In this document: positions 16,733-57,041 of the stretch, in pieces
Numbering within the stretch: position 1 is the stretch's first letter
Layout: the number at the start of each line of letters is the position of its first letter
NCBI GenBank assembly: GCA_963708135.1
Contig: OY970192.1
Span: 4,832,001-4,896,000, forward strand
DNA: 64,000 bases
Direction of reading: 5' to 3'
Source: an uncultured Gemmatimonadales bacterium
Lineage (GTDB): Bacteria; Gemmatimonadota; Gemmatimonadetes; Longimicrobiales; RSA9
Notes under the pieces: model-generated
Seen by the model: only the letters and a program-made list of their open reading frames with translations
Databases searched by the model: none
What the model was told of the DNA's origin: nothing
Program-made: the position numbers and the translations under genes

Positions 16733-16733
16733 G

Positions 16734-18751: not shown

Positions 18752-21460
18752 ATGAGCCTTCCAATGGAGCGCCTGGCCGCATCCCTGGCCGACCGCTACC
18801 GCATCGAGCGCGAGCTCGGCGCCGGCGGGATGGCCACGGTCTACCTGGCCGAGGACCTCAAGCACCACCGCAAGGTAGCCATCAAGGTGCTCAAGCCCGA
18901 GCTCGCCGCCGTGCTCGGCGCAGAGCGGTTCATTCAGGAGATCACCACCACCGCCCAGCTCCAGCACCCGAACATCCTGCCGCTCCACGACTCGGGCGAG
19001 GCCGACGGCCTGCTTTACTACGTGATGCCGTACATCGAGGGTGAGACGCTGCGGAACCGGCTCGACCGCGAGACGCAACTCGGCGTGGATGAGGCGGTGG
19101 AGCTCGCGGAGGAGGTGGCCGGGGCGCTGGACTATGCTCACCGGCACGGCGTCGTGCACCGCGACATCAAGCCCGAGAACATCCTGTTGCACGATGGGCG
19201 GCCCATGGTGGCCGATTTCGGGATCGCGCTGGCGGTGAGCGCCGCGGCCGGCGGGCGGATGACCGAGACGGGGCTGTCCCTCGGCACGCCGCACTACATG
19301 AGCCCGGAGCAGGCGACGGGGGAGCATACCATCACCGGCCGCTCCGACATCTACTCGCTGGGCGCGGTCTTGTATGAGATGCTCGCCGGCGACCCGCCGC
19401 ACACCGGCAGAACGGCCCAGCAGATCATCGCGAAGATCGTGACGGAGGAGCCGACACCGGTCGCGCGGCTTCGAAAGAGCGTGCCGGCGAACGTGGCGGC
19501 GGCGGTGGCGACGTCGCTCGAGAAGCTGCCGGCGGACCGGTTCGAGAGCGCCCGCGCCTTCGCGGAGGCCCTCGCCAATCCGGCGTACCGCCATGGAGTC
19601 ATCGAGGCCTCGAGCGGAGCGAGCGCGGCCGCCGTCCGCGGCTGGAAGCGGCTCTCGCTCGCGCTCGCCGGCGCGCTGGTCCTGGCCCTCGCCGGGGCGG
19701 CCTGGGGGTGGCTTCGCCCGCAGCCGGCGGCGCCGCTGGTCCGGTATCGGCTGGGACTCCCCGACGATGCCGCATTCGACGCCGCATTCGACCTTCCGGC
19801 GCCGGCTCCGGACGGCTCCTTCCTCGTATATCCCGGCCCCGACGCGAGCGGGAGCGGCGTACGCCTGTGGCTCAAACGACGCGACAGCGACACGCCGACA
19901 CCGATCGCCGGGACCGACGGCGCACAGAGCTTCGCCATCTCGCCCGACGGCGCCTGGATCGCATTCACCGGCCCCACGTCGGGGCGGCTGCAGCGGGTGC
20001 CGGTGAGCGGCGGCGCACCGGTGGCGATCGCCGACGACGGCGTCGCCCCGGGTGCCGGCGTCGCCTGGCTGGATGACCATACCCTCGTCGCTCTCGACCG
20101 CAGCGCCACGAGCCTGGAGAGCATTCCGGCGACCGGCGGAGCGCCACGCGTCGTCTATCACACCGACTCGGCGCAGGTCTTCCAGCCGGTTGCTCTTCCG
20201 GGCGCCCGCGGCCTGCTGTTCGGGCGCTGCTACTCGTATTGCGCCATCGGGGAGTTGTGGGCGCTCGACCTGCACAGCGGCAAGGCACACCGGATCCTGG
20301 CCGGCGTCAGCGGTTCGTCCGCGTACCTGGCTCCCGGATACGTGGCGTACGATACCCGGGCGGGCGGGCTGTTCGCGGTGCCGTTCGATCTCGGCCGCCT
20401 GCAGGTGCACGGGTCACCCATCCCCATCGCCGACAGCCTGCGCGAGAGCTTCAACGTGGCAAGCAAACCCTTCCACGTCTCACGGTCGGGCACGCTCGTC
20501 ATGGGGCTCGTGTCGGGCCCACGCCCGCGCAACGAGCTGGTGTGGGTGGACCCTGACGGCCGCACCACTCCCGTCGATACGAGCTGGACGTTCGAGCGCA
20601 CGCAGTCGGCAGGCAATCCGGGCTGGGCGCTCTCGCCCGATGGGAAGAGGCTGGCCATCGGCGTGCATACCCCGTCGGGCGACGCCATCTGGGTCAAGCA
20701 GCTCCGGCTGGGGGCGGCGCAGCCGATCAGCAACGACTCCGTCCCCGCCTACCGTCCGCGCTGGACGCGCGACGGCCGCTACATCACCTTCGTGGGAGGC
20801 GACCGCGAGCCGGGGTTCTTCGCGCATCGCGCCGACGGCCTGGGCGCCGACTCGCTGCTCCTGCGCGGATTCTTCAATGAGGGCGCCATCGCACCGGGCG
20901 GCACGCAGTACGTGCTGCGCACCGGCCACCTCGGATCCGGGGCCGGTGGACGCCAGATCATGCGATTCCGCACCGGCGTCAACTCCGTCCCCGTTCCGTT
21001 GATCGATGCCGGCTCCGGGCACGACGCGGAGGCCGCGGCCGTCTCGCCCGACGCGAGGTGGATCGCCTACCAGTCGGACGAGACGGGGCGGCTGGAGGTC
21101 TTCCTCCGTCCGTTCCCCGACGTGAGCGCGGGGAAGTGGCAGGTCTCGCGCTCGGGAGGTGCCGGACCGCTCTGGTCCCGCGACGGCCGCCGCCTCTTCT
21201 ACCTCCGCGACGATGCCACCATGATGGCCGTGCAGGTCGCCGGAAACGCTTCGCCGCAGCTCGGCGACCCCGTGCCCCTGTTCCGCGTGCCCGACAGCCT
21301 GCTACGTGTTGCGCCGCCCGCCAACTACACGCCCTGGGACGTCGCGCCCGACGGCCGTTTCATCATGGTGCGGAACCTGGCCGCCGGCCGCGCCGTGCGT
21401 TCCGAGATCGTCGTGGTCGAGAACTGGCTGCAGCACTGGCGGCGCGGGGTGGAGCGGTGA
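18752..21460 (+). CDS. Ser/Thr kinase K2: kinase-TM-TolB-like (PD40) beta-propeller
   Basis: Full kinase motifs; hydrophobic segment; repeated SPDG/W(S/T)RDG blades. Confidence 0.95.
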   Translation: MSLPMERLAASLADRYRIERELGAGGMATVYLAEDLKHHRKVAIKVLKPELAAVLGAERFIQEITTTAQLQHPNILPLHDSGEADGLLYYVMPYIEGETLRNRLDRETQLGVDEAVELAEEVAGALDYAHRHGVVHRDIKPENILLHDGRPMVADFGIALAVSAAAGGRMTETGLSLGTPHYMSPEQATGEHTITGRSDIYSLGAVLYEMLAGDPPHTGRTAQQIIAKIVTEEPTPVARLRKSVPANVAAAVATSLEKLPADRFESARAFAEALANPAYRHGVIEASSGASAAAVRGWKRLSLALAGALVLALAGAAWGWLRPQPAAPLVRYRLGLPDDAAFDAAFDLPAPAPDGSFLVYPGPDASGSGVRLWLKRRDSDTPTPIAGTDGAQSFAISPDGAWIAFTGPTSGRLQRVPVSGGAPVAIADDGVAPGAGVAWLDDHTLVALDRSATSLESIPATGGAPRVVYHTDSAQVFQPVALPGARGLLFGRCYSYCAIGELWALDLHSGKAHRILAGVSGSSAYLAPGYVAYDTRAGGLFAVPFDLGRLQVHGSPIPIADSLRESFNVASKPFHVSRSGTLVMGLVSGPRPRNELVWVDPDGRTTPVDTSWTFERTQSAGNPGWALSPDGKRLAIGVHTPSGDAIWVKQLRLGAAQPISNDSVPAYRPRWTRDGRYITFVGGDREPGFFAHRADGLGADSLLLRGFFNEGAIAPGGTQYVLRTGHLGSGAGGRQIMRFRTGVNSVPVPLIDAGSGHDAEAAAVSPDARWIAYQSDETGRLEVFLRPFPDVSAGKWQVSRSGGAGPLWSRDGRRLFYLRDDATMMAVQVAGNASPQLGDPVPLFRVPDSLLRVAPPANYTPWDVAPDGRFIMVRNLAAGRAVRSEIVVVENWLQHWRRGVER

Positions 21461-21545
21461 GCGCCGAGCGTCTGGCCGCCGCCCTGTGGCCGACCGCTAC
21501 GGCATCGAGCGCGAGCCGGGCGAAGGCGGGATGGCGACCGTGTAT
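21457..21545 (+). pseudogene. Kinase 5' stub (first ~29 codons)
   Basis: GTGA-coupled to K2; VSAERLAAAL/(2-nt insertion)/ADRYGIEREPGEGGMATVY, then homology ends. Confidence 0.85.
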
Positions 21546-21598
21546 CGGAACGCCAGGCGGCGCTGGCGCGCGTACCGTAAGCCGCTTATGATAGATCC

Positions 21599-21862
21599 AT
21601 GAGCGACATCAAGCGATATCTTGCGGAGATCGGGGCCCGCGGCGGCCGCAAGAGTCGGCGAGTCCTGGACCCGGAGACCGCGCGGGCGATGGTCCGGGTG
21701 CGCGAGGCGCGGCGCGCGTTCCGGCGGTTCCGCGCCACGTGTTTCTGGTCGTACCGGCCGGATCTGGTGATCGGGATCGAGGACGTGCCGTGGGTGGTCG
21801 AGCAGCTGCGGAAGCACGGGAACCGGGAGGCCTGGCGCGTGGCGGCGAGGCTATGCCGCTGA
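21599..21862 (+). CDS. Small basic protein, putative antitoxin partner of the nucleotidyltransferase
   Basis: 87 aa with CFWSYRPDL..VVEQLRKHGNREAW; overlaps the downstream NTase-like gene. Confidence 0.65.
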   Translation: MSDIKRYLAEIGARGGRKSRRVLDPETARAMVRVREARRAFRRFRATCFWSYRPDLVIGIEDVPWVVEQLRKHGNREAWRVAARLCR

Positions 21863-22480
21863 CGGAGTTTCAGCGCCGGCTGCTGGCGGAGCTGGCGTCG
21901 CCACCGAACGACGAGCGCTATCTGGCGGGCGGCGCGGGGATGCACTTCGCGCCGAACTCGGCCCGCTACAGCGATGACCTCGATTTCTTCCACGATTCCG
22001 AAGCCCGCGTTTCGCATCCGCCTTCGCCGCGGATCGCGATCATCTCGAGCGCGCTGGCTACACGGTGGAAGTCGAGCAGAGTCTTCCCGGGATTCGTCCG
22101 GGCGGGTGCTAGCGCTGGCGGCTCTGTGCTGGGCGGCGGTGGGCAAGGATCCTGGCTTCACGCCGCTTTCGCTGCTGGAGCTGCTGAAGCGGCGGGGCCG
22201 CTACCGGCCGGAGGATTTCGCCCGCCTCCACCTCGCCGAGCCGTTCGAGGTCACGGACGCGAAGCGGACCTGGCTGGCGGCGCTTGCGGAGACGGAGTCG
22301 TTCGTGCGCGAGCGGCCGCCGGAGGAGAGCGGCTGCCTCTACTATTCGACTGAACGCCAGCAGTTCGTGGTGCCGCGAAGCGATGCCAGTTTGGCCGCGC
22401 AACGGGTCGTGCCGCACTTCGGCGCGCCAGGCGGCATGCTGCCCCGGATGGCCGATTCCCGAGTCGAAGGAGCGTCGTGA
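21853..22480 (+). pseudogene. AbiEii-like nucleotidyltransferase toxin, frameshifted and probably internally deleted
   Basis: MPLTEFQRRLL..YLAGGAG..RYSDDLDFFHD (NTase GG/DxD motif); coding continues in two other frames (..YTVEVEQSLPGFVRA; ALCWAAVGKDPGFTP..). Confidence 0.7.
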
Positions 22481-25137
22481 TCTCTGCCGCCGAGCGTCTC
22501 TCGGCCGCCCTCGCGGACCGCTACCGCATCGAGCGCGAGCTCGGCGAGGGCGGCATGGCGACCGTGTATCTCGCGCGCGACCTGAAGCACGAGCGCGACG
22601 TCGCCCTCAAGGTGCTTCGGCCGGAGCTCGCCGCGGTCATCGGCGCCGAGCGCTTCCTCGCCGAGATCAGGACCACGGCCAACCTGCAGCACCCGCACAT
22701 CCTGCCGCTCTTCGACTCGGGCGAGGCGAGCTCCTTCCTGTTCTACGTGATGCCGTACGTCGAGGGCGAGTCGCTGCGCGACCGGCTGAATCGGGAGAAG
22801 CAGCTGCCCATCGCGGACGCGCTGCGCATCGCGCTGGGGGTTGCCTCGGCGCTGGACTACGCGCACCGCCACGACGTCGTCCACCGCGACATCAAGCCGG
22901 AGAACATCCTGCTGCACGACGGTCAGCCGCTGGTGGCCGACTTCGGCATCGCGCTGGCGCTGAGCACGGCCGGCGGCACGCGCATGACGGAGACGGGGAT
23001 GAGCGTGGGCACGCCCACGTACATGAGCCCCGAGCAGGCCATGGGCGAGCGCGCCATCGATGCCCGGGCCGACATCTACTCCCTCGGCTGCGTCGTCTAC
23101 GAGATGCTGACGGGTGACCCGCCGTTCACGGGCTCGACCGCACAGGCGATTGCGGCACGCGTGCTCACGGAGCCGCCGCGATCACTGACGAAGCAGCGGC
23201 ACACCGTCCCCGCGCATGTCGAGGCGGCGGTGCTGACGGCGCTGGAGAAGCTGCCGGCGGATCGGTTCGCCACGGCGCAGGCCTTCGCCGATGCGCTCGA
23301 GGGCAAGGCGGGCGCCACGGCGGCCGCGGTGCGCGGGATCGCCGGTGCCGCGCGCCGCTCTGGATGGCGGGGGACGCTGCGGAACCCGGCGGTGTGGGTG
23401 CTGGGCCTCGTCGCCATCGGCTTGTCGGTGGTAGCCTTTCGTGAGCGGACCGCCAACCGGACCGCTGGTGCCGACAGTGTGGTGCGCTTCACCGTGGACC
23501 TCCCCCCTGGCTACGAGCCGGCCATGTACGACGCCGGAGGGCCCGACCTGGCGATCTCTCCGGACGGATCCACGCTGGCCTTCCCCGTGATCGATCCGCG
23601 CGGCGGCCAGCAGTTGTTCGTGCGACGCCTGGCCGAGGCGACCGCCCGGGTGCTCCCGGGCACCGACGGTGGATTCGGGCCGACGTTCTCGGCGGATGGA
23701 GCCCACGTCCTGTTCTATACGGCCGGCCGGCTCGAGAAGGTGGCGCTCAGTGGCGGCGCTCCTCAGCTGGTGGCGAGCAAGCTCCCGGGGGGTGGGCAGA
23801 CCTGGATACCTCACGGGGACATCGTCTTTTCCACCCCCGCATTCCCCGTTCTCATGCGTGTCTCCGCCGCGGGGGGCGAGCCACGCCCCGCGGCAGCCCT
23901 GGACACAGCGCGGGCAGAAAGGGGCCAGTTCTTCCCGCACGCCCTGTCCGATGGTCGCCACGTGCTCTACACGAGTTGGGGCCGCGGATCGACGGAAGAC
24001 GCCCGTATAGGCATCCTGGACCTCTCCACCGGCCGCGCGCGCCGGCTCGACGTGTCCGGCACGTTCCCTCTGGGGATGCTGGACGGGCGGCTCATCTACA
24101 CCGACCAGACCGGCACCGTGCTGGCGGTGCCGCTCGATGTCGCCTCCGGCCGCGTAAGCGGTCAGTCGGTTCCGCTGCTCACCGGTGTGGCGACGTCGGC
24201 CCGCGGCTCGGCCGTGGCCGCGCTCTCGCCAACGGGTACCCTGGCGTACGAGGGAGGCAGTCGGGAGTCGACCCTGGTGCTTGCGAACGCGGCCGGGGCG
24301 ACGCCGCTCCTTCCCGAGGCCCGGCCTTACTCGATGCCGCGCTTTTCCCCGGATGGTAAACGGGTGGCCGTCAGCATTGCGTCGGGCACCTCGTCGGACA
24401 TCTGGCTGGAGGACGTGGTATCCGGGAGCCTGACGCGACTCACCAGCGGCGGCACGGTCAACGAGCGACCCGAGTGGTCGCCCGACGGGACCCGGGTGAT
24501 CTTCCGCACCGTGCGGGGCGGACGCTCGGCCATCTGGTGGCAGCCCGCCAACGGCAGCGGGCCCGCGTCCCCCCTCCTCGCCGACAGTGATGCGGACTAT
24601 TTCGAGGGGGTCATGACGCCCGACGGCCGCAGTCTGGTCTACCAGGTGGACACGGGCGAGTCCGACGTCATGATCCGGCGGCTGGACGGAGGCGACACGG
24701 ACCGCGTCATCGCCGCCACCCCGGCCACCGAATCCCGTCCGCGCGTCTCGCCCGATGGCCGCTGGGTGGCGTACATGACCGATGACGGCGGTGGGCCGCA
24801 GGTGGTCGTTCAGCCGATCTCCGGCTCGGGTGCCAGGGTCCAGGTCTCGGTCCGCGGAGGCAACGAGCCGGTCTGGGCGCCTGACGGCCGCCACCTCTTC
24901 TACCGGAACGACGGCAAGTTCATTGTAGCCGAGGTTTCGGGCACGCCGACATTCCACGTCCTCTCCCGATCCGACTTCATGAACGACACCTACCTGCCGT
25001 CGGCCGTGCCCCACGCGAACTACGACGTCTCGCCGGACGGGAAGAAGCTGCTCGTAGTCGAGGGCGAGCGGCAGCAGCTCATGGTGGTGCACGACTGGGC
25101 CGCGGAGGAGAGGGCGAAGCTGAAGGAGGTCAACTGA
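22477..25137 (+). CDS. Ser/Thr kinase K3: kinase-TM-TolB-like propeller
   Basis: Full kinase motifs, TM, PD40 blades; close paralogue of 50921-53587. Confidence 0.95.
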   Translation: MISAAERLSAALADRYRIERELGEGGMATVYLARDLKHERDVALKVLRPELAAVIGAERFLAEIRTTANLQHPHILPLFDSGEASSFLFYVMPYVEGESLRDRLNREKQLPIADALRIALGVASALDYAHRHDVVHRDIKPENILLHDGQPLVADFGIALALSTAGGTRMTETGMSVGTPTYMSPEQAMGERAIDARADIYSLGCVVYEMLTGDPPFTGSTAQAIAARVLTEPPRSLTKQRHTVPAHVEAAVLTALEKLPADRFATAQAFADALEGKAGATAAAVRGIAGAARRSGWRGTLRNPAVWVLGLVAIGLSVVAFRERTANRTAGADSVVRFTVDLPPGYEPAMYDAGGPDLAISPDGSTLAFPVIDPRGGQQLFVRRLAEATARVLPGTDGGFGPTFSADGAHVLFYTAGRLEKVALSGGAPQLVASKLPGGGQTWIPHGDIVFSTPAFPVLMRVSAAGGEPRPAAALDTARAERGQFFPHALSDGRHVLYTSWGRGSTEDARIGILDLSTGRARRLDVSGTFPLGMLDGRLIYTDQTGTVLAVPLDVASGRVSGQSVPLLTGVATSARGSAVAALSPTGTLAYEGGSRESTLVLANAAGATPLLPEARPYSMPRFSPDGKRVAVSIASGTSSDIWLEDVVSGSLTRLTSGGTVNERPEWSPDGTRVIFRTVRGGRSAIWWQPANGSGPASPLLADSDADYFEGVMTPDGRSLVYQVDTGESDVMIRRLDGGDTDRVIAATPATESRPRVSPDGRWVAYMTDDGGGPQVVVQPISGSGARVQVSVRGGNEPVWAPDGRHLFYRNDGKFIVAEVSGTPTFHVLSRSDFMNDTYLPSAVPHANYDVSPDGKKLLVVEGERQQLMVVHDWAAEERAKLKEVN

Positions 25138-25140
25138 ATC

Positions 25141-26115
25141 ATGCCACCGGACGCCGTTCGACCGATCACCCTGGACGAGATCCGTGAAGCGCGCGCGCGC
25201 ATCGCGGACGTCGTCGTGCGCACGCCGCTGATCCGGCTGGAGCTCGGCCCCGACCAGCCCGACATCCGGCTGAAGCTCGAGAACCTCCAGCCGATCAACG
25301 CCTACAAGCTGCGCGGCGCGGTCAACGCCGTGGCCATGCTCCCCGAGGCGGCGCGCGCGCGCGGCGTGTGGACGATCAGCGCGGGCAACGCGGGACAGGG
25401 CGTCGCGTACGCGGCGAGGAGCGCCGGCGTGCCGTGCACCGTGGTGGCCATCGAGACGGCACCCACGTCGAAGATGGAGCGGATGCGGGCGCTCGGAGCG
25501 CGCATCGTCCCGGTGCCATACGACGTCGCCTGGAAGGCGCTCGAGGCCCGCGAGTACCCGGGGATCGACGGCACCTTCGTGCACCCGTTCGACGACCACG
25601 ACTTCATTGCCGGCCATGCGACGATGGGCCTGGAGATCCTGGAGGATGCGCCGGACACGGCCGCCGTCGTCGCCGCGATCGGCGGAGGCGGGCTCGTCAC
25701 GGCGCTCGGGAGCGCGCTCAAGGCGCTCCAGCCGGGCATCGAGGTGTGGGGTGCCGAGCCGGAGACGGCCGCTCCCGCGGCACGCTCGTTCGCCGTGGGA
25801 TCGCCCCAGGTGTTCGACGCGTGGGAGCCATCGTTCGTGGACGGTGCCGGTGGCCAGAGCGTGTTCCCCCGCATGTGGGAGCGCATGCGCCCTGTGGTGG
25901 ACGGCTCGATCGTGGTCACGCTGGAGGAGACGCGCCGCGCCATGCGACTGATGGCGGAGAAGGCACGCATCATCTCGGAGGGCGCGGGCGCGTTGCCCCT
26001 TGCCGCCGCCCTGACCGGGAAGGCGGGCCCCGGCCCGATCGTGGCGGTCGTCTCGGGTGGCAACATCGACCTCGGGAAGTTCTGCGAGCTCATCCGGGAC
26101 GCCTCCGCCCCGTGA
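25141..26115 (+). CDS. PLP-dependent threonine/serine dehydratase family enzyme
   Basis: LKLENLQPINAYKLRGA, SAGNAGQG, HPFDD, IGGGGL, VSGGNID. Confidence 0.92.
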   Translation: MPPDAVRPITLDEIREARARIADVVVRTPLIRLELGPDQPDIRLKLENLQPINAYKLRGAVNAVAMLPEAARARGVWTISAGNAGQGVAYAARSAGVPCTVVAIETAPTSKMERMRALGARIVPVPYDVAWKALEAREYPGIDGTFVHPFDDHDFIAGHATMGLEILEDAPDTAAVVAAIGGGGLVTALGSALKALQPGIEVWGAEPETAAPAARSFAVGSPQVFDAWEPSFVDGAGGQSVFPRMWERMRPVVDGSIVVTLEETRRAMRLMAEKARIISEGAGALPLAAALTGKAGPGPIVAVVSGGNIDLGKFCELIRDASAP

Positions 26116-26167
26116 GCGGCCCCGACCGAGCTCCCGCCCGCACACCGGAGTGTCCATCCTGGCCGAC

Positions 26168-27748
26168 ATGTCCCCCTCCGTAGCCCGGCTCCGCGCGGCC
26201 GCGTGCGTGGCCCTGCTCTGCTGCGTCGCCCGGCCCCTCTCCGCCCAATCGGCGCGGCCCATGACGATTCCGGCGCTGGGCACCATCACGTTCCCCACCT
26301 CCACGCGCACCGCGGCGGCGGAGAGCACCTTCGTGCGCGGCGTGCTGCTGCTGCACGTCTTCGAGTACGCCGACGCCGCCGCGGCTTTCCGCGCCGCACA
26401 GAAGCTCGACCCCCACATGGCAATGGCCTCCTGGGGCGAGGCCATGACCCACGACCACCCGGTGTGGGACGAGGAGGATCCGGCCGCCGCGCGCGCGGCG
26501 CTCGCGAAGTACGCCCCGACGGCCGCCGCCCGCGAGGCCAGGGCGCCGACTGCTCGCGAGCGTGCCTACCTCCACGCGGTGGACCTCCTGTTCGGCACGG
26601 GAGCCAAGGCGGAGCGGGATACGGTCTACTCGCGGGCGATGAAAGCGGTACTCGATGCCTATCCAGGCGACGACGAGGCCCGCGCCTTCTACGCGCTCTC
26701 CCTCCTCGGGCTGAGCCAGGGCGTGCGCAATGTGCCGACCTATCTCCGCGCCGCGGCGATCGCTGAGAGCGTGTTCGTGCGCAACCCGCACCACCCCGGC
26801 GCCGCGCACTATTGGATCCACGGCATGGACGACCCCGAGCACGCCGCGGCGGCGCTGCCCGCGGCGCGGGCGCTCTCCCGGATCGCCCCCGACGCCGCGC
26901 ACGCGCAGCACATGACTTCCCACATCTTCATGGCCCTCGGGATGTGGGATGACGTCGTGCGCGCGAACGAGAACGCCACGCGCGTCGTGGACGAGGGTCT
27001 TGCCGCGCGCGGGCGCGGCGCTTCATTCTGCGGCCACTACAACTTCTGGCTCGAGTACGGCTACCTGCAGCTGGAGCGCACCGGCGATGCGCGGACGCTG
27101 ATGCAGAAGTGCAGGGCCCAGGCCACGCCTGCCATGCGCGACGAGCGCGACCCCGACAACTCGACGATCGGCTCGGCCGTCCAGATGTGGTCCCGCTACC
27201 TCATCGACACCGGGGACTGGTCCGGGCAGGACGCGCGCTGGACGCCCGAGTTCGGCAAGGCGGAGTCGGCGCGCAACGAATGGGAGTTCGCGCGCGGCTT
27301 CGCCGCGGCCAGACGCGGTGACCTCGCGACCCTGCGCGACGCCATGGCGGGCTTCCGGGCCGGCCGCGCGCACCTGCTCTCGGAGATCGCGGCCAAGCCG
27401 AAGCCCGATCCGGACGACGTGGAGTACCGTTCCCGGCTCGAGGTGCTCAGCCTGGAGCTCGAGGCCGCGGCCCGCCTGGCGGCAACGCCGGCGGAGGTTG
27501 ACTCGGCCGTCGTGCTGCTGCGCCGCGCTACGCGCGTCGAGGACTCGATGGCGTTCGCCTTCGGCCCGCCCACCGTGGACGAGCCGTCGCACGAGATGCT
27601 CGGCGACGTGCTGCTCCGCATGCGCCGGTTTTCCGAGGCCACGCGCGAGTTCGAGGACGCGCTCCGGCGCGCGCCGGGACGCGCGAGCGCCCGACGCGGC
27701 CTCCAGCAGGCGCGGGCGGGGATGAAGCGCGGCGACGCGTCGCCTTAG
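26168..27748 (+). CDS. Secreted TPR-like helical protein
   Basis: Signal peptide; GTITFPTS..FVRGVLLLHVFEY, HPGAAHYWIH, HAQHMTSHIF, TPR-like C-terminus. Confidence 0.82.
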   Translation: MSPSVARLRAAACVALLCCVARPLSAQSARPMTIPALGTITFPTSTRTAAAESTFVRGVLLLHVFEYADAAAAFRAAQKLDPHMAMASWGEAMTHDHPVWDEEDPAAARAALAKYAPTAAAREARAPTARERAYLHAVDLLFGTGAKAERDTVYSRAMKAVLDAYPGDDEARAFYALSLLGLSQGVRNVPTYLRAAAIAESVFVRNPHHPGAAHYWIHGMDDPEHAAAALPAARALSRIAPDAAHAQHMTSHIFMALGMWDDVVRANENATRVVDEGLAARGRGASFCGHYNFWLEYGYLQLERTGDARTLMQKCRAQATPAMRDERDPDNSTIGSAVQMWSRYLIDTGDWSGQDARWTPEFGKAESARNEWEFARGFAAARRGDLATLRDAMAGFRAGRAHLLSEIAAKPKPDPDDVEYRSRLEVLSLELEAAARLAATPAEVDSAVVLLRRATRVEDSMAFAFGPPTVDEPSHEMLGDVLLRMRRFSEATREFEDALRRAPGRASARRGLQQARAGMKRGDASP

Positions 27749-27776
27749 AGATCTTTCACCTTCGAATTGGAGTCCC

Positions 27777-28715: not shown

Positions 28716-28724
28716 CCGCGAAAA

Positions 28725-28775
28725 GCCGTGGCGCGGAGCGACGTCACTCTGGCCGCGCAGCGGGTCGTGGTGCCC
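28725..28775 (+). pseudogene. Relic of the NTase-toxin 3' end
   Basis: VARSDVTLAAQRVV resembles VPRSDASLAAQRVV at ~22370-22411, at both DNA and protein level. Confidence 0.55.
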
Positions 28776-28945
28776 GCTCTCGCCAGCGAGGAGAAGCGTC
28801 GATCGGGGCGCCCGACTGCCGCCCTTAGCGCGGCAGGGGCGGGGCCTGCATATTGGCATACCCCCTTTTCAGGACTTGTGGAGCGGGAGATCCGCTCATC
28901 GCGGCTCACCCTCGACCGGGAGCGTCCAATGGCGCGGAGTCGGTC

Positions 28946-34293: not shown

Positions 34294-34357
34294 GAGGAGC
34301 CCCGATGGACCAGCTCGAGACCTGCGAGACTGCAGCGCGTCCCTGCCGAGAACCGTC

Positions 34358-47665: not shown

Positions 47666-50310
47666 GTGACGCCCCCGACCGCCTCGCCGCTGCCCTTGCC
47701 GACCGCTACCGCATCGAGCGCGAGCTCGGCCAGGGCGGCATGGCCACGGTCTACCTGGCCGAGGACCTGAAGCACCAGCGCCAGGTGGCGATCAAGGTCC
47801 TGAAGCCCGAGCTGGCCGCAGTCCTCGGCGCCGACCGCTTCGTGCAGGAGATCACCACCACCGCGCAGCTCCAGCACCCGCACATCCTGCCGCTCTTCGA
47901 CTCCGGCACCGCCGACGGCTTCCTCTTCTACGTCATGCCGCACGTCGAGGGCGAGACGCTGCGCGACCGACTGAACCGCGAGACGCAGCTCGGTGTGGGT
48001 GAAGCGGTACGGATCACGCGGGAGGTAGCCGACGCGCTGGACTACGCACACCGCCACGGCGTGATCCACCGCGACATCAAGCCCGAGAACATCCTGCTGC
48101 ACGACGGCCGGCCGATGGTGGCCGATTTCGGCATCGCGCTGGCCGTTTCGGCCGCGGCGGGCGGGCGCATGACCGAGACGGGGCTCAGCCTCGGCACGCC
48201 GCACTACATGAGCCCGGAGCAGGCGACGGCGGAGAAGGACCTCACCGGGCGATCCGACGTCTACTCGCTGGGCTCCGTCCTCTACGAGATGCTGACGGGC
48301 GACCCGCCACACACGGGGTCCTCCGCCCAGCAGATCATCATGAAGATCGTGACGGAGGAGGCGGCGCCGGTCACGAAGCTCAGGAGATCGGTGCCGCCCA
48401 ACGTGGCGGCCGCCGTCGCGAAGGCGCTCGAGAAGCTGCCCGCCGACCGCTTCGAGAGCGCGAAGGCGTTCGCCGACGCGCTGGAGGATCCCGCGTTCCG
48501 CCTCGCCGACGCCGCCCCCACGGGCCCCGTGGTCAGCTCCCGGAAGGCCTGGGCCGCCGCCGCGGCATCCCTGATCGTCGCGGCGCTCTCTCTGGCCGTC
48601 GCGGGCTGGGCCCTGATGCGGCGCCCGACCGGAGTTCGGGACATTGGAACGCCGCCGACGAGCGCGGTCAACGTCACCACCGAAGATCGGGCTTTCTCGG
48701 TAGCGCCCGACGGGTCGTTCGTGGTCTATACCGCGCAGAAGGGGGCTACCACCGAGCTGTGGTACATGAGCCTGAGGACGGGAGAGGGTCACCCCATTCC
48801 GGGCACGGTCGGGACATTCACCGCGCCGTGGATCTCCCCCGACGGCAAGCGCGTGGCGGTGGGCGTCCCCGCCGGCAGCGGTTATCAGCTGAAGGTGGTG
48901 GGGATCGACGGGGGGACCGTGTCGCCCGTCGCTTCCATCACGCTTCCATTCGGCGGGACCTGGACGGATGACGGGAGGATCTTCTTCAGCGACGACAACG
49001 GACGTCTGCTCCGCTGGGTGGACCCGCTGGGCGGCGACGCGCGTGAGATCACGGTTGGAGGATACTGCCTGAACCCCGTGCTCATCGGAACAGGCGGCCA
49101 AGTGCTCTGCGGAGGCGGCGCCGACAAGTTCGCCTCCAGCCGCGACCTGGCGGATCCGGGCCACATTCGGTACTGGCATCACGCGGCCGACGGGCCCGGC
49201 GGGAAGGCCGCGCTGCTGCGCGGCGCCGACTTCCGCGTGGTCGATGGCCGATACCTGGTCTACATGGGCGTCGACGGAACCATCATGGCCACGCGCATCG
49301 AGAGCGTCAACTCGCTCACGGTCGGCCGATCCGTCTCCCTGGTGCCCGGTGTACGCAATGGAGACTACAGTGGCACCGGGCAATTCGACCTGACCCGGGA
49401 CGGCACCCTCGTCTACCTGCCGGGAACCAATCCGGCCGTGGGCCGGCTCGTGCGCGTCGGCAGGGATGGGCCCATCGAGCCGCTGCCGGTGGAGCAGGCC
49501 GCCCACCTACGCTTCCGCGAAAGCCCCGATGGCCGGCGGTTGGCAACGGTTGTGGAAGGCCTCGAGCAGCAGGAGCTGCGCGTCTACGACCTGCAGGCGG
49601 GCACACACGAGACCGTGGCCGTCGGCTCGTTCATCGACGTTCCGGTCTTCAGCCCGAATGGCGACCGCATCGCTTACTCGATCAGCGAGGAACCGGGTCG
49701 AGAATCCCTCGTCTCCCGGCTGCTCGACTCCTCGACGAAGCCTAAGGTACTCGCCACGACCGCGCCCCCCACCACGTTTCGGCCATCCATGTATCTGGCC
49801 GCTGATTCTCTCCTCGTTGGATTTCCGGGAGGCGAATCCGCAATGATCGTGGGTTCCGAGGGTGGAGTCAACTCGCTCGGGCTTGCCACCGGCCAGTTCG
49901 TGTCGATCTCCCCGGGCGGTCACTGGATCGCGTACCAGGGGAATTCGTCCGGAGACCTGCGGGTCCAGCCGTGGCCGGCGCTCGATCGGCGCTATTTCGT
50001 AGATGCCCGGGGTATCGAGCCTCAGTGGGTCTCGGCGACGGAGCTGGACTATATCGCGCAGACGGACGAAGGGGATTGGGAGTTCCACAAAGCGGTGATC
50101 CAACCTGGCGCGAACCCGCCCGTAGGTCCGCCCGAGCTCGTCGCCGTCGCTCCGCAGTTCAGCCAGACTCCCGGCTGGTCCTGGGCCGTGGGCCATGACG
50201 GAGACCTCATCTACCTGCAGTCGCCGGCGGAGCGCGTCGAGCACTACTTCCGGGTTGTGCCGGGCTGGGTGAAGCGGATGGAGCGCGCCGTGGACGAGGC
50301 GAACCGATGA
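47662..50310 (+). CDS. Ser/Thr kinase K11: kinase-TM-TolB-like propeller
   Basis: ATGA overlap with K10; full motifs. Confidence 0.95.
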   Translation: MSDAPDRLAAALADRYRIERELGQGGMATVYLAEDLKHQRQVAIKVLKPELAAVLGADRFVQEITTTAQLQHPHILPLFDSGTADGFLFYVMPHVEGETLRDRLNRETQLGVGEAVRITREVADALDYAHRHGVIHRDIKPENILLHDGRPMVADFGIALAVSAAAGGRMTETGLSLGTPHYMSPEQATAEKDLTGRSDVYSLGSVLYEMLTGDPPHTGSSAQQIIMKIVTEEAAPVTKLRRSVPPNVAAAVAKALEKLPADRFESAKAFADALEDPAFRLADAAPTGPVVSSRKAWAAAAASLIVAALSLAVAGWALMRRPTGVRDIGTPPTSAVNVTTEDRAFSVAPDGSFVVYTAQKGATTELWYMSLRTGEGHPIPGTVGTFTAPWISPDGKRVAVGVPAGSGYQLKVVGIDGGTVSPVASITLPFGGTWTDDGRIFFSDDNGRLLRWVDPLGGDAREITVGGYCLNPVLIGTGGQVLCGGGADKFASSRDLADPGHIRYWHHAADGPGGKAALLRGADFRVVDGRYLVYMGVDGTIMATRIESVNSLTVGRSVSLVPGVRNGDYSGTGQFDLTRDGTLVYLPGTNPAVGRLVRVGRDGPIEPLPVEQAAHLRFRESPDGRRLATVVEGLEQQELRVYDLQAGTHETVAVGSFIDVPVFSPNGDRIAYSISEEPGRESLVSRLLDSSTKPKVLATTAPPTTFRPSMYLAADSLLVGFPGGESAMIVGSEGGVNSLGLATGQFVSISPGGHWIAYQGNSSGDLRVQPWPALDRRYFVDARGIEPQWVSATELDYIAQTDEGDWEFHKAVIQPGANPPVGPPELVAVAPQFSQTPGWSWAVGHDGDLIYLQSPAERVEHYFRVVPGWVKRMERAVDEANR

Positions 50311-50924
50311 CCGGTCCTTCCGAGCGCCTCGCCGCCGCCCTCGCCGACCGCTACCGCATCGAGCGCGAGCTCGGCGCGGGCGGCATGGCCACGGTCTACC
50401 TGGCCGAGGACCGGCGCCATCACCGGCAGGTGGCCATCAAGGTGCTCAAGCCCGAGCTCGCCGCCGTGCTCGGCGCCGATCGCTTCGTCCAGGAGATCAC
50501 CACCACCGCCCAGCTGCAGCACCCGCACATCCTGCCGCTCTTCGACTCCGGCACTGCCGACGGCTTCCTCTTCTACGTCATGTGGCAGGTCTCGTCCGGA
50601 GGCGGCGCGGCGCCGCGCTGGTCTCACGACGGCCGCGCCATCTTCTACATCGATCCTGCCAGGCGCATGAGAATGGCGGACGTTCGGACCTCGCCCACGT
50701 TCGCGCTCGTGGGCCAGCGGCTGCTCGGCTCGCAGCTGAGCGCCGCGGGGGCAGGTGGAGTGGCGTACGCATACTTCCCCACCTACGCCGTCACGCCCGA
50801 CGATCGACATTTCGTGATGCTGGCGCCTCCCGAGCACGGCTCGGCGCGTAGCGAGTTCGTTCCGGTGGTCGAGATCGAGCACTGGCGCCCCGGGACGCCG
50901 TTGAACCTGGGGCCGCGACGATGA
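50307..50924 (+). pseudogene. K12: internally deleted kinase (N-lobe fused in frame to the last propeller blades)
   Basis: ..GFLFYVM|WQVSSGGGAAPRWSHDG..; lacks HRD, DFG and TM; junction at 50582/50583. Confidence 0.9.
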
Positions 50925-53587
50925 CGGACGCGAGCCGCCTCGCCGCCGCCCTCTCCGACCGCTACCGCATCGAGCGCGAGCTCGGCGCGGGCGGCATGGC
51001 GACGGTGTATCTCGCGCGCGACCTGAGGCACGAGCGCGACGTCGCCCTCAAGGTGCTGCGTCCGGAGCTCGCCGCGATCATCGGCGCCGAGCGATTCCTG
51101 GCCGAGATCAGGACCACGGCCAACCTGCAGCACCCGCACATCCTGCCGCTCTTCGACTCGGGCGAGGCGGACTCGTTCCTGTTCTACGTGATGCCGTACG
51201 TGGCCGGGGAGTCGCTCCGGGACCGGCTGAATCGCGAGAAGCAGCTGCCCATCGCGGAGGCCCTGCGCATCGCCACGGGGGTGGCCTCCGCGCTGGACTA
51301 CGCCCACCGCAACGGCGTGGTCCACCGCGACATCAAGCCGGAGAACATCCTGCTCCACGACGGCCAGCCGCTGGTGGCCGACTTCGGCATCGCGCTGGCG
51401 CTGAGCAGCGCGGGCGGCACGCGCATGACGGAGACGGGCATGAGCGTGGGGACGCCCACGTACATGAGCCCCGAGCAGGCCATGGGCGAGCGGGACATCG
51501 ACGCGCGCGCCGACATCTACTCGCTGGGCTGCGTCGTCTACGAGATGCTGAGCGGGGACCCGCCGTTCACGGGCTCGACCGCGCAGGCCATCGCCGCGCG
51601 CGTGCTCACGGAGACGCCGCGGTCGCTGACAAAGCAGCGCCACACCATCCCGCCGCACGTCGAGGCGGCGGTGCTGACGGCGCTGGAGAAGCTGCCGGCG
51701 GACCGCTTCGCCACGGCGCAGGCCTTCGCCGACGCGCTCGAGGGCAAGGCGGGCGTGACGCCGGCCGCGGTGCGCGGGATGCGCCGCGCCGCGCCGGCCA
51801 GGGGCTGGCAGGCGAGGCTGCGCGATCCGGTGGTCTGGGCGCTGGCCGTCGCCGCCGTCGTCGCCTCGGGCGTGGCGTTCCTCCAGCGGACGGACAGCCG
51901 GAGCCTGGATGGCGGCAGCGTGGTGCGCTTCACCGTGAGCCTCCCCGCGGGCTACCGGCCGTCCCTGTCGAATACCAACGGGCCCGACCTGGACATCTCT
52001 CCGGATGGATCCACGGTGGTCTTCCCGGTGATCGACGCGCGCGGTGGCGATCGGCTGTACGTGCGACGCATGGACGAGGCGACGGCGCGCCCCCTTCCTG
52101 GGACCGACCGTGCGTATGTCCCGCGCTTTTCGGCGGATGGCGCCTCGGTCGAGTTCTTCGCGGCCGGCCGGTTCGAGAAGGTGGCGCTCAGTGGAGGCGC
52201 CCCCCTGGTCGTCACCGAAGTCGGCAGTCTGATCGTGGGAAGCACGTGGGCGCCGGATGGAGACATCTTCTTTGCCACTCCCGCCTCCCCCGTTCTCATG
52301 CGCGTTTCCGGCGCGGGCGGCCGGGCACGCGCAGCGGCCAGCCTGGACACGGCCAGGGGAGAAACGCTCCAACTCTTTCCCCGGGCACTGCCAGATGGGC
52401 GGCACGTGCTCTACCTCAGCTGGGGCCACGGGGGGACCGAAGACGCCCGCATCGGGCTCCTGAACCTGTCCACCGGGCGCACGCGCCGGCTCGACGTGGC
52501 CGGCACGTTCCCGCTGGGGATGCTGGACGGGAAGCTGATCTACGCCGACCAGACCGGCACCGTGCTGGCCGTACCGCTCGACATCGCGTCCGGAACCGTG
52601 AGCGGCCAGCCGGTCCCGCTGCTCACCGGGGTGGCGACCTCGGCCCGCGGCTCGGCCGTGGCCGCGCTCTCGCCGACGGGGACGCTGACGTACGACGGAG
52701 GCGGTCGGGACGCGACCCTCGAGCTGGCGAATGCGGCTGGCGCGACGCCGCTTCTCCCGGATGTCCGGGCCTACTCGACGCCGCGCTATTCCCCGGATGG
52801 GAAGACGGTGGCCGTCAGCGTCGCTTCCGGCACCTCGTCGGACATCTGGCTGGGAGACGTCGCATCGGGGAGCCTTACGCGACTCACCAGCGGCGCCGCA
52901 GTCAACGAGCGGCCCGAATGGTCTCCCGACGGGTCCCGGGTGATCTTCCGCACGGTCCACGGCGGACGTTCGGCCCTCTGGTGGCAGCCCGCCAATGGGA
53001 GCAGCCCCGCCTCACCGCTGCTCGCCGACAGCAACGCGGACTACTTCGAAGGGGTCATGACCCCGGATGGCCGCAGCCTGGTCTTCCAGGTGGACACGGG
53101 CCAGTCGGACATCATGGTCCGGAACCTCGAGGGACGCGGCCCGGACCGTCCTCTCGCCGCCACCCCGGCGCAGGAAGACCATCCGCGCGTCTCGCCGGAC
53201 GGCCGCTGGGTCGCGTACGTGAAGGACGACGGTAGTGGGCCGCAGGTGGTCGTCCAGTCCATATCGGGCGTTGGCGCTCGAGTCCAGGTTTCCGTGCGCG
53301 GAGGCGACGAGCCGGTCTGGTCACCGGACGGTCGCAGGATCTTCTACCGAAACGAAGGGAAGTTCATTGTCGCCGAGGTTGCGGCGACGCCGACCTTTCA
53401 CGTCGTCTCCCAGGCGGACTTCATGGACGACACCTACCTGCCTTCGCCAGTTCCGCACGCCAACTTCGACGTCTCACCGGACGGGAAGTCTCTGCTCGTG
53501 GTCAAGGGCGAGCCGGAGCAGTTCATGGTGGTCCACGACTGGGCTGCCGAGGTGAGGACGAAGCTCGCAGGGGCCGAGAAGCGCTGA
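50921..53587 (+). CDS. Ser/Thr kinase K13: kinase-TM-TolB-like propeller
   Basis: ATGA overlap with K12; full motifs; paralogue of K3. Confidence 0.95.
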   Translation: MTDASRLAAALSDRYRIERELGAGGMATVYLARDLRHERDVALKVLRPELAAIIGAERFLAEIRTTANLQHPHILPLFDSGEADSFLFYVMPYVAGESLRDRLNREKQLPIAEALRIATGVASALDYAHRNGVVHRDIKPENILLHDGQPLVADFGIALALSSAGGTRMTETGMSVGTPTYMSPEQAMGERDIDARADIYSLGCVVYEMLSGDPPFTGSTAQAIAARVLTETPRSLTKQRHTIPPHVEAAVLTALEKLPADRFATAQAFADALEGKAGVTPAAVRGMRRAAPARGWQARLRDPVVWALAVAAVVASGVAFLQRTDSRSLDGGSVVRFTVSLPAGYRPSLSNTNGPDLDISPDGSTVVFPVIDARGGDRLYVRRMDEATARPLPGTDRAYVPRFSADGASVEFFAAGRFEKVALSGGAPLVVTEVGSLIVGSTWAPDGDIFFATPASPVLMRVSGAGGRARAAASLDTARGETLQLFPRALPDGRHVLYLSWGHGGTEDARIGLLNLSTGRTRRLDVAGTFPLGMLDGKLIYADQTGTVLAVPLDIASGTVSGQPVPLLTGVATSARGSAVAALSPTGTLTYDGGGRDATLELANAAGATPLLPDVRAYSTPRYSPDGKTVAVSVASGTSSDIWLGDVASGSLTRLTSGAAVNERPEWSPDGSRVIFRTVHGGRSALWWQPANGSSPASPLLADSNADYFEGVMTPDGRSLVFQVDTGQSDIMVRNLEGRGPDRPLAATPAQEDHPRVSPDGRWVAYVKDDGSGPQVVVQSISGVGARVQVSVRGGDEPVWSPDGRRIFYRNEGKFIVAEVAATPTFHVVSQADFMDDTYLPSPVPHANFDVSPDGKSLLVVKGEPEQFMVVHDWAAEVRTKLAGAEKR

Positions 53588-53588
53588 G

Positions 53589-56258
53589 ATGATCCCCGAC
53601 CGCCTCGCCGCCGCCCTGGCCGACCGCTACCGCATCGAGCGCGAGCTCGGCGCGGGCGGCATGGCCACGGTCTACCTGGCCGAGGACCTCAGGCACGACC
53701 GCAAGGTGGCCATCAAGGTGCTCAAGCCCGAGCTGGCCGCCGTGCTCGGCGCCGAGCGCTTCGTGCAGGAGATCAAGACGACGGCGCAGCTGCAGCACCC
53801 GCACATTCTCCCCCTCTTCGACTCCGGCACCGCCGGCGGCTTCCTCTACTACGTCATGCCGTACCTCGAGGGCGAGACCGTTCGCGAGAAGCTCAACCGC
53901 GAGACGCAGCTCGGGGTGGCCGAGGCGGTGCGGATCACCACGGAGGTGGCGGACGCGCTCGATTACGCCCACCGCCACGGCGTGATCCACCGCGACATCA
54001 AGCCCGAGAACATCCTGCTGCACGACGGCCGGCCCATGGTCATGGACTTCGGCATCGCGCTGGCGGTCTCCGCCGCTGCGGGCGGGCGCATGACCGAGAC
54101 CGGGCTCTCACTCGGCACGCCGCATTACATGAGCCCGGAGCAGGCGACGGCGGACCGCGACATCACGGCGCGCTCCGACATCTACTCGCTGGCGAGCGTG
54201 CTGTACGAGATGCTCGCGGGCGAGCCGCCCCACATGGGCAACTCGGCGCAGCAGATCATCATGAAGATCGTGACGGAGGAGGCGGCGCCGGTCACGAGGC
54301 TGCGCAAGTCCGTGCCGCCGAACGTCGCGGCGGCGCTGTCGAAGGCGCTGGAGAAGCTCCCGGCCGATCGGTTCGACACCGCGAGGGAGTTCGGCGAGGC
54401 GCTCAAGGACCCGGCGTTCACTGGCCCGTCTGCCGCTCCCGCTGCCTCCGACAGGGTGCGGCGATCACCGGCGGTCACCTATCTCCTCATGGCCGCTTGC
54501 GTGGCGCTCGCAGCCCTCTCCGCCTGGTGCTGGCTCCGCTCGCGTCGCACGCCGGTAGCGTGGTTCATCATCGGCTTCCCCACGAATCAGGCGCCGAGCT
54601 ACTCGGCAGTCGGCACGCACGTGGCCCTCTCCCGTGACGGGGCGATGCTGGCGTACATCAGCGGGCCATCGGGCGACTCGAGGCTGTGGATCAAGCGACG
54701 CGATGCCCTGACGGCCGAGCCGATCCCCGGCACCGAGGGCGCGTACGATCCGTTCTTCTCGCCCGACGGGCGACAGCTCGGGTTCATCACCGATCGCAAC
54801 GGCCGCGCGATGAAGATCGTCAGTCTGGCCGGCGGTCCGCCCCACGCCGTCCCCGCCGCGGCGACCCGCGGGATGGGAACCGGCGGCGCCTGCTGGGCCA
54901 GCGACGGCTACATCTACTTCGACGCGGACCTCGGTGGGCTGCAGCGCGTGAAGCCCGACGGCACCGGCCTCGAGACCGTCGTGCCCCTCGATTCGGCGCG
55001 GAACGAGACGGGCGTCGCGTGGCCCGAAGTCCTGCCCGACAACAAGGTCGTGGTCTTCCGGCTCCGCCACGGCACCGACGCGCCGGGCGATTTTGCGATC
55101 GTCGCGCTTCGGATCGGCACGACGGAGCGCCGCGTCGTGGCGCGAGGCGTGAGCGCGCGTTACGCGTCCGGCCGGCTCCTCTGGGTCACCGCGGACGGCA
55201 CGCTGCAGGCGGCCCCGTTCGACGAACGGCACCTCGCGCTCACCGGTCCGGCGACCGGGGCCGGATATGGCGTGCGCGTCTATGGAGCCTATGCGGGCGC
55301 GGACCTCTCCATCACCGAGAGCGGGGATCTGTACTACGTCGCCGGAGCGGCGGGCGCCGCAACCACCCTCGACTGGGTCACGCGTGACGGCGTTACGCGG
55401 CCCGTGGATACGACGTGGAACGAGAGCAGCGAGATCCGGGGGCTCGCGCTCGCTCCGGACGGCAAGGAGGTGGCGCTCGATCTGGCCCGCCCGACGGGGA
55501 CCGACATCTGGATCAAGCACCTGCCCGCCGGCGCGCTCACGCGGCTGACGCTCGATTCCGCCGCGGACAGTCGGCCCCGGTGGTCCGGCGACGGGCGCGA
55601 CGTGCTCTTTCTCTCGGAGCGCGTGAAGCCGGCCGCGATCTTCCGGCGACGTGAAGACGGCACCGGCCATGCCGTCCTCGTCGCGCACGCGGACAGGAGC
55701 ATCACCGAGGCATCCGAGTCGCGGGATGGTCGCTGGCTCGTTGCGCGCACGTCGAGCTCGGAGCGGGGAAACGGCGACATTCTCGCGATGGAAGTCGGCC
55801 GGGATACGATGCTGCGACCGATCGTCGCGACCGCCGCGGCGGAGAGCAACCCGGATCTCTCGCCGGATGGCCGGTGGCTCCTGTACGTCTCCACCGCATC
55901 AGGACGACGCGAGGTGTACGTGCGTCCGTTCCCCGACGTGAACGGCGGCGTCTGGCAGATCTCCACCGAAGGCGGCGTGGAGCCGCGGTGGTCGCACGCC
56001 GGGAACGAGATCTTCTTCAGGGGCCTCGCCTCGCCCGACATGATGGCGGTCGACGTGCAGACGACGCCGGCGTTTCACGCGGGTGCGCCCCACGTGCTGT
56101 TTCACACGGACGCCGTAACCGGCCTGGACTACCCGCGCTACGACGTGGCACCCGACGATCGCCGCTTCCTCATGGTTGGACACGGCGGTGACACCGCCCC
56201 GCAACTGGTGCGCGTCGAGCACGTTCTCCAGGCTCTCGAGCGCAAGCCCGCACCGTGA
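53589..56258 (+). CDS. Ser/Thr kinase K14: kinase-TM-TolB-like propeller
   Basis: Starts 1 bp after the K13 stop; full motifs. Confidence 0.95.
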   Translation: MIPDRLAAALADRYRIERELGAGGMATVYLAEDLRHDRKVAIKVLKPELAAVLGAERFVQEIKTTAQLQHPHILPLFDSGTAGGFLYYVMPYLEGETVREKLNRETQLGVAEAVRITTEVADALDYAHRHGVIHRDIKPENILLHDGRPMVMDFGIALAVSAAAGGRMTETGLSLGTPHYMSPEQATADRDITARSDIYSLASVLYEMLAGEPPHMGNSAQQIIMKIVTEEAAPVTRLRKSVPPNVAAALSKALEKLPADRFDTAREFGEALKDPAFTGPSAAPAASDRVRRSPAVTYLLMAACVALAALSAWCWLRSRRTPVAWFIIGFPTNQAPSYSAVGTHVALSRDGAMLAYISGPSGDSRLWIKRRDALTAEPIPGTEGAYDPFFSPDGRQLGFITDRNGRAMKIVSLAGGPPHAVPAAATRGMGTGGACWASDGYIYFDADLGGLQRVKPDGTGLETVVPLDSARNETGVAWPEVLPDNKVVVFRLRHGTDAPGDFAIVALRIGTTERRVVARGVSARYASGRLLWVTADGTLQAAPFDERHLALTGPATGAGYGVRVYGAYAGADLSITESGDLYYVAGAAGAATTLDWVTRDGVTRPVDTTWNESSEIRGLALAPDGKEVALDLARPTGTDIWIKHLPAGALTRLTLDSAADSRPRWSGDGRDVLFLSERVKPAAIFRRREDGTGHAVLVAHADRSITEASESRDGRWLVARTSSSERGNGDILAMEVGRDTMLRPIVATAAAESNPDLSPDGRWLLYVSTASGRREVYVRPFPDVNGGVWQISTEGGVEPRWSHAGNEIFFRGLASPDMMAVDVQTTPAFHAGAPHVLFHTDAVTGLDYPRYDVAPDDRRFLMVGHGGDTAPQLVRVEHVLQALERKPAP

Positions 56259-56355
56259 CCGACGCGTTCGTCCGCCTCGCCGCCGCCCTCGCCGACCGCT
56301 ATCGCATCGAGCGCGAGCTCGGCGCGGGCGGCGTGGCCACGGTCGCGACCTGGCC
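56255..56355 (+). pseudogene. Kinase 5' stub (first ~30 codons)
   Basis: GTGA-coupled to K14; TDAFVRLAAALADRYRIERELGAGGVATV, then homology ends at the PIN gene. Confidence 0.88.
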
Positions 56356-56361: not shown

Positions 56362-56757
56362 CTATTCCGCCAGCGCCAGCCCCGCCTCCACCAGGCGCTC
56401 GAAGTCGCCGCCGTCCGATGTGGCGAGCTCGGCGCCGGAGACGATCGCCGTGCCCCCGATGATGCAGTCCGGGAAGCTGCCCCGCCTGCGACCGGCGTGG
56501 TTGAAGAGACGCGCCGCCTCGGTCACCTCGGCCGTGCCGACCGGCACATGCATGGGGGCGATGCGGGCCGCGATGGCTTCATCCGCTTCGGCGAGGGGGC
56601 CACACAGGAACTCGCCCCAGACGAACGCCGAAATGGCAACCGGACGGCGCGCTCCAAGCCAGCCGCGGAGTCGCGCCGACTCCGCCGAGCCCGGAACGAG
56701 CGCGCGGATGAGAAAGCTGGTATCGAGATGAATGGCCCGCGCCGCCGGCGCGATCAC
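56362..56757 (-). CDS. vapC: PIN-domain (VapC) toxin
   Basis: IHLDTSFLI, SAFVWGEF, FPDCIIGGTA, LATSD..DF. Confidence 0.9.
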   Translation of the reverse strand: MIAPAARAIHLDTSFLIRALVPGSAESARLRGWLGARRPVAISAFVWGEFLCGPLAEADEAIAARIAPMHVPVGTAEVTEAARLFNHAGRRRGSFPDCIIGGTAIVSGAELATSDGGDFERLVEAGLALAE

Positions 56758-57020: not shown

Positions 57021-57027
57021 GCCGAAA

Positions 57028-57041
57028 GTTATGGCCATAAC
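57028..57041. promoter_or_regulatory. Probable TA operator, perfect 14-bp palindrome
   Basis: GTTATGGCCATAAC just upstream of the antitoxin start. Confidence 0.65.

Follow-up and report, generated by a model that had tools for sequence, protein, structure and literature searches.

Tandem arrays of paralogous genes evolve by birth-and-death turnover, which leaves pseudogene remnants behind. Toxin-antitoxin (TA) pairs are described as stabilising arrays and as decaying on chromosomes (PMC7167474), and the length limits given for RecA are 23-27 and 44-90 bp (PMC12074656). A literature search covering papers without their supplements returned none on Gemmatimonadota kinase arrays with TA modules. 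The window analysed here is the whole 64,000-nucleotide stretch C1:4832001-4896000 of a genome assembled as one 5.4-Mb contig with 72% GC (G000), and its relatives are Gemmatimonadota. About 15 tandem Ser/Thr kinases lie in the window, most with a beta-propeller C-terminus, and many are coupled head-to-tail by overlapping stop and start codons, so that the first bases past the stop of one kinase are the 5' end of the next. Features are listed in Table 1; codon numbers follow kinase 53589 (G21, G23, G24, M25, V28, Y29).

Table 1. Features of the window around the two kinase stubs
Feature	Coordinates	Strand	Details
Two tandem Phd-PIN pairs	15381..16855	-	No stub; directly after intact kinase-TPR gene 12688-15360 (internal control)
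Intact Ser/Thr kinase	18752..21460	+	Precedes stub 1; has TM and PD40 beta-propeller
Stub 1	21457..21546	+	Kinase codons 1 to 29-30 (nucleotide homology); GTGA-coupled; 2-nt insertion near 21487
Degenerate palindrome and TATGAT -10 box copy	21575..21592	+	TTGAC -35 of homologues missing
87-aa protein gene	21599..21862	+	All-helical, putative antitoxin; 53 nt past stub 1
AbiEii-like nucleotidyltransferase pseudogene	21853..22480	+	Frameshifts and internal deletion; stop coupled to next kinase
Intact kinase	22477..25137	+	3' of TA module 1
Internally deleted kinase	50307..50924	+	Codon ~91 joined in frame to propeller C-terminal piece; coupled on both sides
Intact kinase	53589..56258	+	Final full unit of main array; precedes stub 2
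Stub 2	56255..56355	+	Kinase codons 1-28; Met25 codon is GTG; weak continuation to codon 31
VapC-like PIN toxin gene	56362..56757	-	PF01850, 45.8 bits, cut-off 23.6
RHH antitoxin gene	56754..57038	-	RHH_1, 40.6 bits; coupled to PIN gene, 4-nt overlap
S9 peptidase gene	57168..59330	+	

A preliminary description had read two short frames in this window as kinase stubs, each coupled to the kinase before it, broken at the same point and followed by a TA module. Both stubs are real: they are 5' kinase fragments coupled through GTGA to the preceding kinase, with homology lost at codon 28-30, and TA-type cargo does lie behind each, namely the 87-aa gene with an AbiEii-like gene (a pseudogene, a point missing from that description) and the antisense RHH-VapC pair. 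The GTG of stub 1 (21457-21459) overlaps the TGA (21458-21460) of kinase 18752-21460, and its match to the kinase 5' nucleotide profile (E 6e-11) ends at codon 29-30 (21546). Stub 2 has its GTG at 56255, overlapping the TGA of kinase 53589-56258, and its homology (E 3e-12 with the same kind of profile) reaches 56344 (V28), with a faint ACCTGGCC extension as far as 56355.

The AbiEii-like gene after stub 1 is split over three reading frames, has nothing matching residues 80-160 of the 272-aa orthologue in G009, and scores 17.6 bits against the Pfam AbiEii model, below the cut-off of 22.5, which the intact L232 orthologue passes with 33.2 bits. A contig from run X1, possibly the source sample, showed 0 differences from 21751-22545. 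The 87-aa partner of this gene matched no AbiEi-type antitoxin or other family in Pfam or NCBIfam and no PDB fold, and a fold search with a model of the protein found no match. Behind stub 2, the stop of the antisense PIN gene falls 17 nt past V28; the NCBIfam VapC model gives this PIN protein 26 against a cut-off of 80, which is below threshold. With its PIN domain and coupled upstream gene for a small DNA-binding protein, 56362-57038 fits a type II TA system (RHH-VapC) and is a predicted toxin-antitoxin pair.

Further remnants occur elsewhere in the genome. The third stub (C1:2831699-2831607, minus strand) breaks off at V28, and behind it come a 72-aa gene and a gene for a DUF6036 nucleotidyltransferase; stub and module together span C1:2831699-2830885 on the minus strand (L001 9700-8883), and immediately upstream there is a Phd-PIN pair that itself follows an intact kinase. 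The methyltransferase gene past this module is broken by an in-frame stop (C1:2830700-2830430, minus; L001 7919-9022). The fourth stub, near C1:4802117 (L002), ends at G21, runs into the C-terminal tail of a kinase and has no TA pair. Three of the four short G000 stubs end at codons 28-30, and apart from a TA promoter motif no repeat common to three stub junctions in this genome was found. A kinase at C1:1797567 (minus) lacks codons 1-30 and is joined to part of an unrelated small gene. Kinase arrays hold 4 of the 21 PIN genes in G000, and three of its Phd-PIN pairs adjoin intact kinases without a stub.

Array regions from about 40 other genomes were screened by a profile search combined with a junction-anchored matrix, of which a score of 20 was reached by 2 of 723 control junctions; 387 kinase starts were covered, those of G000 included. 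Left out before counting were four apparent truncations in G316 that are N-gaps, insertions at loop codons 82-85, frameshifted whole kinases, and loci L096, L121 and L157; the counts exclude unpublished genomes, loci of two of which were in the training set of the profile. Low-complexity insertions of 60-110 nt at loop codons 82-85 are themselves present in many kinases (L158-L160, L163, L165, L166 in G429, L108, L140). The 34 hand-curated 5' remnants outside G000 end at codons 10-16 (n=4), 17-20 (n=3), 21-27 (n=13), 28-31 (n=1), 32-60 (n=5) and 61-141 (n=8), so that 23 end by codon 39, chiefly at 21-27; the four shortest have matrix scores at or under the threshold and were called by eye. Tests of the distribution reject uniform spacing (p 6e-9) and a 1/x law (p 0.002; the drop past codon 31 is steeper than 1/x, p 0.007), but not erosion following 1/length^2 (p 0.43; edge p 0.16). 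In simulations with no mutation added, the profile search detected about 0 remnants up to codon 16 and 12-20 of 25 at codons 18-24, and the estimated ends showed no pile-up. Remnants in which a stub is combined with kinase C-terminal tails or internal pieces were seen at 50307 and in L002, L030, L041, L126, L127, L145, L151, L160, L287 and L289.

Two exact-pattern scans of 331 genomes gave 8 and 7 matches; nine of these were genuine stubs (codons 21-24, n=4; codons 28-31, n=5), and the others were intact, frameshifted, at contig ends or G000 itself. As the prefixes of the two patterns occur in 108 and 165 of 290 intact starts, the two intervals break at similar rates. A one-mismatch stub pattern yielded only intact kinases among the matches listed and served just to locate arrays. 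Rather than meeting at a single point, the breaks lie on a plateau that covers codons 21-31 (the G-loop), a little above the detection floor, and then drop off. The 5' hotspot for breakage or insertion proposed earlier survives as a pile-up at the G-loop in many genomes, but not as one site, the short ends spanning codons 11-39. Stubs 1 and 2 end 1-2 codons apart, and since two ends at most one codon apart are expected about 26% of the time on an 11-codon plateau (by arithmetic), this coincidence is within chance; three ends within three codons are expected about 13% of the time by the same kind of calculation. A stub ending at codons 29-32 also lies near a DUF6036 pair in L036.

No consensus fold was found for DNA or RNA in the stub region (z about -0.5 at best), and synonymous constraint there was nothing unusual. 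Target duplication is not supported, as the downstream kinase is the best match to the stub in only 2 of 12 informative cases and ranks 19th of 29 for stub 2; by similarity ranks, stubs resemble the upstream kinase more than the downstream one.

What follows most stubs is an ordinary gene, a further kinase or the C-terminal tail of a kinase. Among 23 short array stubs a kinase comes next in seven and a TA pair follows directly in four (L007, L104 twice, and L160 behind an 11-codon stub called by eye); in one further case, L193, the TA pair stands after a stub plus C-terminal tail. No recognisable TA pair stands behind any of the 13 pattern-found stubs (9 from the 331 genomes and 4 from a genome-contig scan). 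As a comparison group we took 129 intact kinases that are followed by a called gene other than a kinase on the same strand; about 20 of the 129 are estimated to be locus-edge miscalls, leaving about 109. Three full TA pairs and one orphan 87-aa gene follow them. Where the neighbour is not a kinase, TA genes thus stand behind 4 of 16 stubs and 4 of about 109 intact kinases (Fisher p 0.009), and pooling the pattern-found stubs gives 4 of 27 (p 0.049). The neighbour scan covered 148 of 243 candidates, mostly of 58-270 aa, at E 0.001, in genomes related to one another, and unnamed TA pairs would escape it in the stub and intact groups alike. TA genes after stubs are a weak enrichment and a minority cargo. 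The link between stubs and TA modules drawn earlier is partly borne out, by the third stub with its TA-like pair and by the first test, but it weakens to p ~0.05 on pooling and most stubs lack TA genes; likewise, tabulating breakpoints and cargo in relatives returned weak TA enrichment with ends scattered over codons 11-39. Non-TA neighbours are equally tight to their stubs (9-17 nt in L173, L183 and L186), and the median spacer past intact kinases is 74 nt. In a cargo-first search with the DUF6036 enzyme, kinase sequence lay within 1.5 kb at 5-6 of 29 other loci and an adjacent remnant at 2.

Two side observations concern these arrays. In L007 (12995-12100, G009) the stub frame has no stop for about 300 codons and runs antisense over the entire TA pair until a stop that overlaps the GTG of the next kinase; this is probably an antisense frame of high-GC DNA. 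REP-like GTCGCT.AAGCGAC hairpin repeats occur in the arrays of L110, L118, L147, L149, L155, L164 and L037, and near such repeats lie an IS200-like Y1 transposase gene (L147) and a PDDEXK_3 gene (L152).

The search for uninterrupted alleles was productive. Orthologues of the RHH-VapC pair, 82-92% identical, occur without a stub in G012, 73 nt past an intact kinase, and in G043, 22 nt past a DUF533 gene, where the S9 peptidase and a kinase still follow. The 87-aa gene family comprises 2053 clusters; at 80 metagenome loci of this gene the AbiEii-like partner is present in 77, kinase sequence in eight and a stub in one. This one, L232, comes from another organism and runs from a stub ending at V28 through an intact 87-aa/AbiEii pair to an intact kinase. 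In G009 a codon-12 stub with a tail precedes the 87-aa/AbiEii module, and another short stub lies on its far side. A sigma70-like promoter (TTGAC-17-TATGAT) with a palindrome over its -10 box is conserved in 41 homologous loci listed and is degenerate in the window copy; lying about 6-7 nt before the ATG, it makes leaderless transcripts likely in this family. Loci of the two-gene module are the window (21575-22480), L188, L193, L194 and L195-L274. That both window modules are found stub-free in relatives argues that the site is not needed for entry and that no lost unit was replaced, contrary to the earlier idea that TA modules substitute for array units. TA modules get into arrays without stubs, and stubs arise without TA modules.

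We favour, with a probability of roughly 0.6, the explanation that the stubs are the 5' ends of lost kinase genes, eroded up to a retained neighbour, which here is a TA passenger. The array would turn over fast, kinase units being lost often. A unit preceding another kinase could vanish seamlessly through homologous recombination, while one preceding a gene that is kept, such as a TA pair that resists loss, would be removed by illegitimate deletions and leave a stub, the debris shrinking by deletions to a spacer-sized piece beside the upstream stop. The TA pair would probably have been an array passenger before the kinase was lost. Long remnants may be short-lived, as their size exposes them to deletions and gives RecA direct repeats of sufficient length, and since stubs below about 55 nt are also hard to detect, visible remnants would cluster at 60-90 nt, at the G-loop. 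The drop past about 90 nt may stem from the RecA length need or from the G-rich G-loop, two causes not separable here. We propose that TA pairs are over-represented beside stubs because they resist loss and gather in permissive regions (PMC7167474). The observed coupling, remnants of every length, mosaics, excess of short pieces and stub-free TA alleles support erosion. Counting against it are the drop past codon 31, steeper than 1/x, the dead toxin gene after stub 1, which can be no barrier now, the ends of three of the four short G000 stubs at codons 28-30, the kinase without codons 1-30 at C1:1797567, the stub(V28)-87aa-AbiEii-kinase layout shared by L232, and the stub ending at 29-32 in L036. 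No lost kinase that could be the direct ancestor was identified at either window slot, and we infer the order of events from species-level relatives only.

It is unlikely, if deserving of serious thought, that the 5' 60-90 nt act as a landing pad, that is, a homology arm: recombination of an existing stub-cargo junction with any kinase 5' end would copy the cargo, TA pairs included, between slots and genomes without an integrase. The best sign of such active reuse comes from G419; there, two stubs that differ in their 5' parts have a common break (codon 17-18) and a common 148-bp terminal-inverted-repeat element, and an intact kinase follows each (L141 12228-12375 and 15085-15232). Stub 1 and L232 are also alike in cargo and break position, although their post-break spacers are dissimilar; codons 15-44 are the most conserved stretch across paralogues, and gene order differs among G000, G012 and G043. 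Copying would nevertheless account for the spread of junctions and not for their origin, the downstream kinase is not the best match of the stubs, and no stub is present at seven of the eight kinase-linked metagenome loci or at the three G000 PIN pairs. A broader, still speculative version would be an integrase-free cassette array, in which the G-rich 60-90 nt are both a fragile site and a minimal RecA arm, TA pairs and further small cargo would move from slot to slot on a stub and active TA pairs would keep the array from collapsing.

Rather doubtful is the proposal that G-loop codons, being G-rich, two-tier quadruplex-capable and rich in microhomology, are a fragile site at which deletions tend to begin whatever the cargo. 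A (G>=2)x4 motif lies on the sense strand of codons 15-31 in 100% of 290 kinases, as against no more than 26% for any of eight other windows; the abundance of 8-mers is highest at codons 23-25, the G fraction is 0.48, and ends fall mostly at codons 21-31. However, codons 50-52 nearly equal this abundance (10.3 vs 11.1) with no excess of breaks, the motif is a consequence of GxGG coding and its quadruplex only predicted, and erosion with a detection floor fits already.

We regard as very improbable a site-specific insertion of TA modules or small mobile repeats just past GxGG[MV]ATV, replacing the unit. It would suit the three G000 stubs that break at codon 28-30, each with a TA-like pair of a different kind, and REP-like, MITE-like or IS3 elements do follow some stubs elsewhere. 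Yet breaks right past [MVIL]ATV numbered four outside G000 in the genome-contig scan, none with a TA pair, and none of the five stubs at codons 28-31 in the 331 genomes has one. TA-linked stubs end at codons 11, 18, 21, 26 and 28-30, with TA genes in both orientations; these scattered ends largely refute the reading, and neither a recombinase among the 39 window ORFs (Pfam) nor a conserved structure was found. That the stubs are assembly chimeras at the most repeated part of kinase genes is scarcely credible: the G316 truncations did prove to be gaps, and X1 short-read contigs break at kinase repeats, with no bridge over either junction among the pieces listed (X1 joints being short-sided matches between paralogues), but G000 is one contig, substitutions and an indel unique to the stubs set them apart from the intact copies, and the layout recurs in L232, L007 and L104.

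In a common phylum that is little cultured, the locus shows how very large repertoires of receptor kinases turn over and that their arrays gather TA pairs, repeats and IS pieces. If the stubs are erosion debris, they call for caution in annotation, as they yield spurious ORFs running antisense through TA genes; if they were working recombination arms, a cassette system without a recombinase would be of greater importance. The 87-aa partner of the AbiEii-like enzyme, widespread and unnamed, is a TA candidate open to direct test.

Compared with known systems, the two modules resemble VapBC-like RHH-PIN and AbiE-like pairs (PF01850, PF01402, PF08843) in their coupled genes with the small partner first, the AbiEii domain of intact orthologues and the promoter palindrome, a putative autoregulatory site that is degenerate in the window. 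They differ from type IV AbiE in that the window toxin is a pseudogene and the 87-aa partner falls outside AbiEi and other families. As in the orphan cassettes of polymorphic toxins (PMC3482391), a short piece of the main gene stands before variable cargo; unlike in those cassettes, the cargo here is often antisense or unrelated and brings no in-frame alternative C-terminus with an immunity gene. The TA cassettes of the Vibrio cholerae superintegron (PMC7167474) are likewise TA pairs in a repeat-rich array, where they plausibly limit deletions. In contrast to the superintegron, the window has no integrase, attC-like hairpin or fixed junction and its units are 2.7-kb kinase genes; for an integron-like system, the 39 window ORFs include no recombinase, no structured site was found, and the junctions are spread over codons 11-39 instead of being nucleotide-precise. 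The locus looks like the usual debris of a birth-and-death array that carries TA passengers, and it shares with such arrays short, mosaic and internally deleted copies among intact units and the retention of 5' ends at the junction. It departs from them in that coupling leaves no intergenic DNA, so that the remnant is itself the spacer, and in that the ends cluster at a recognisable motif.
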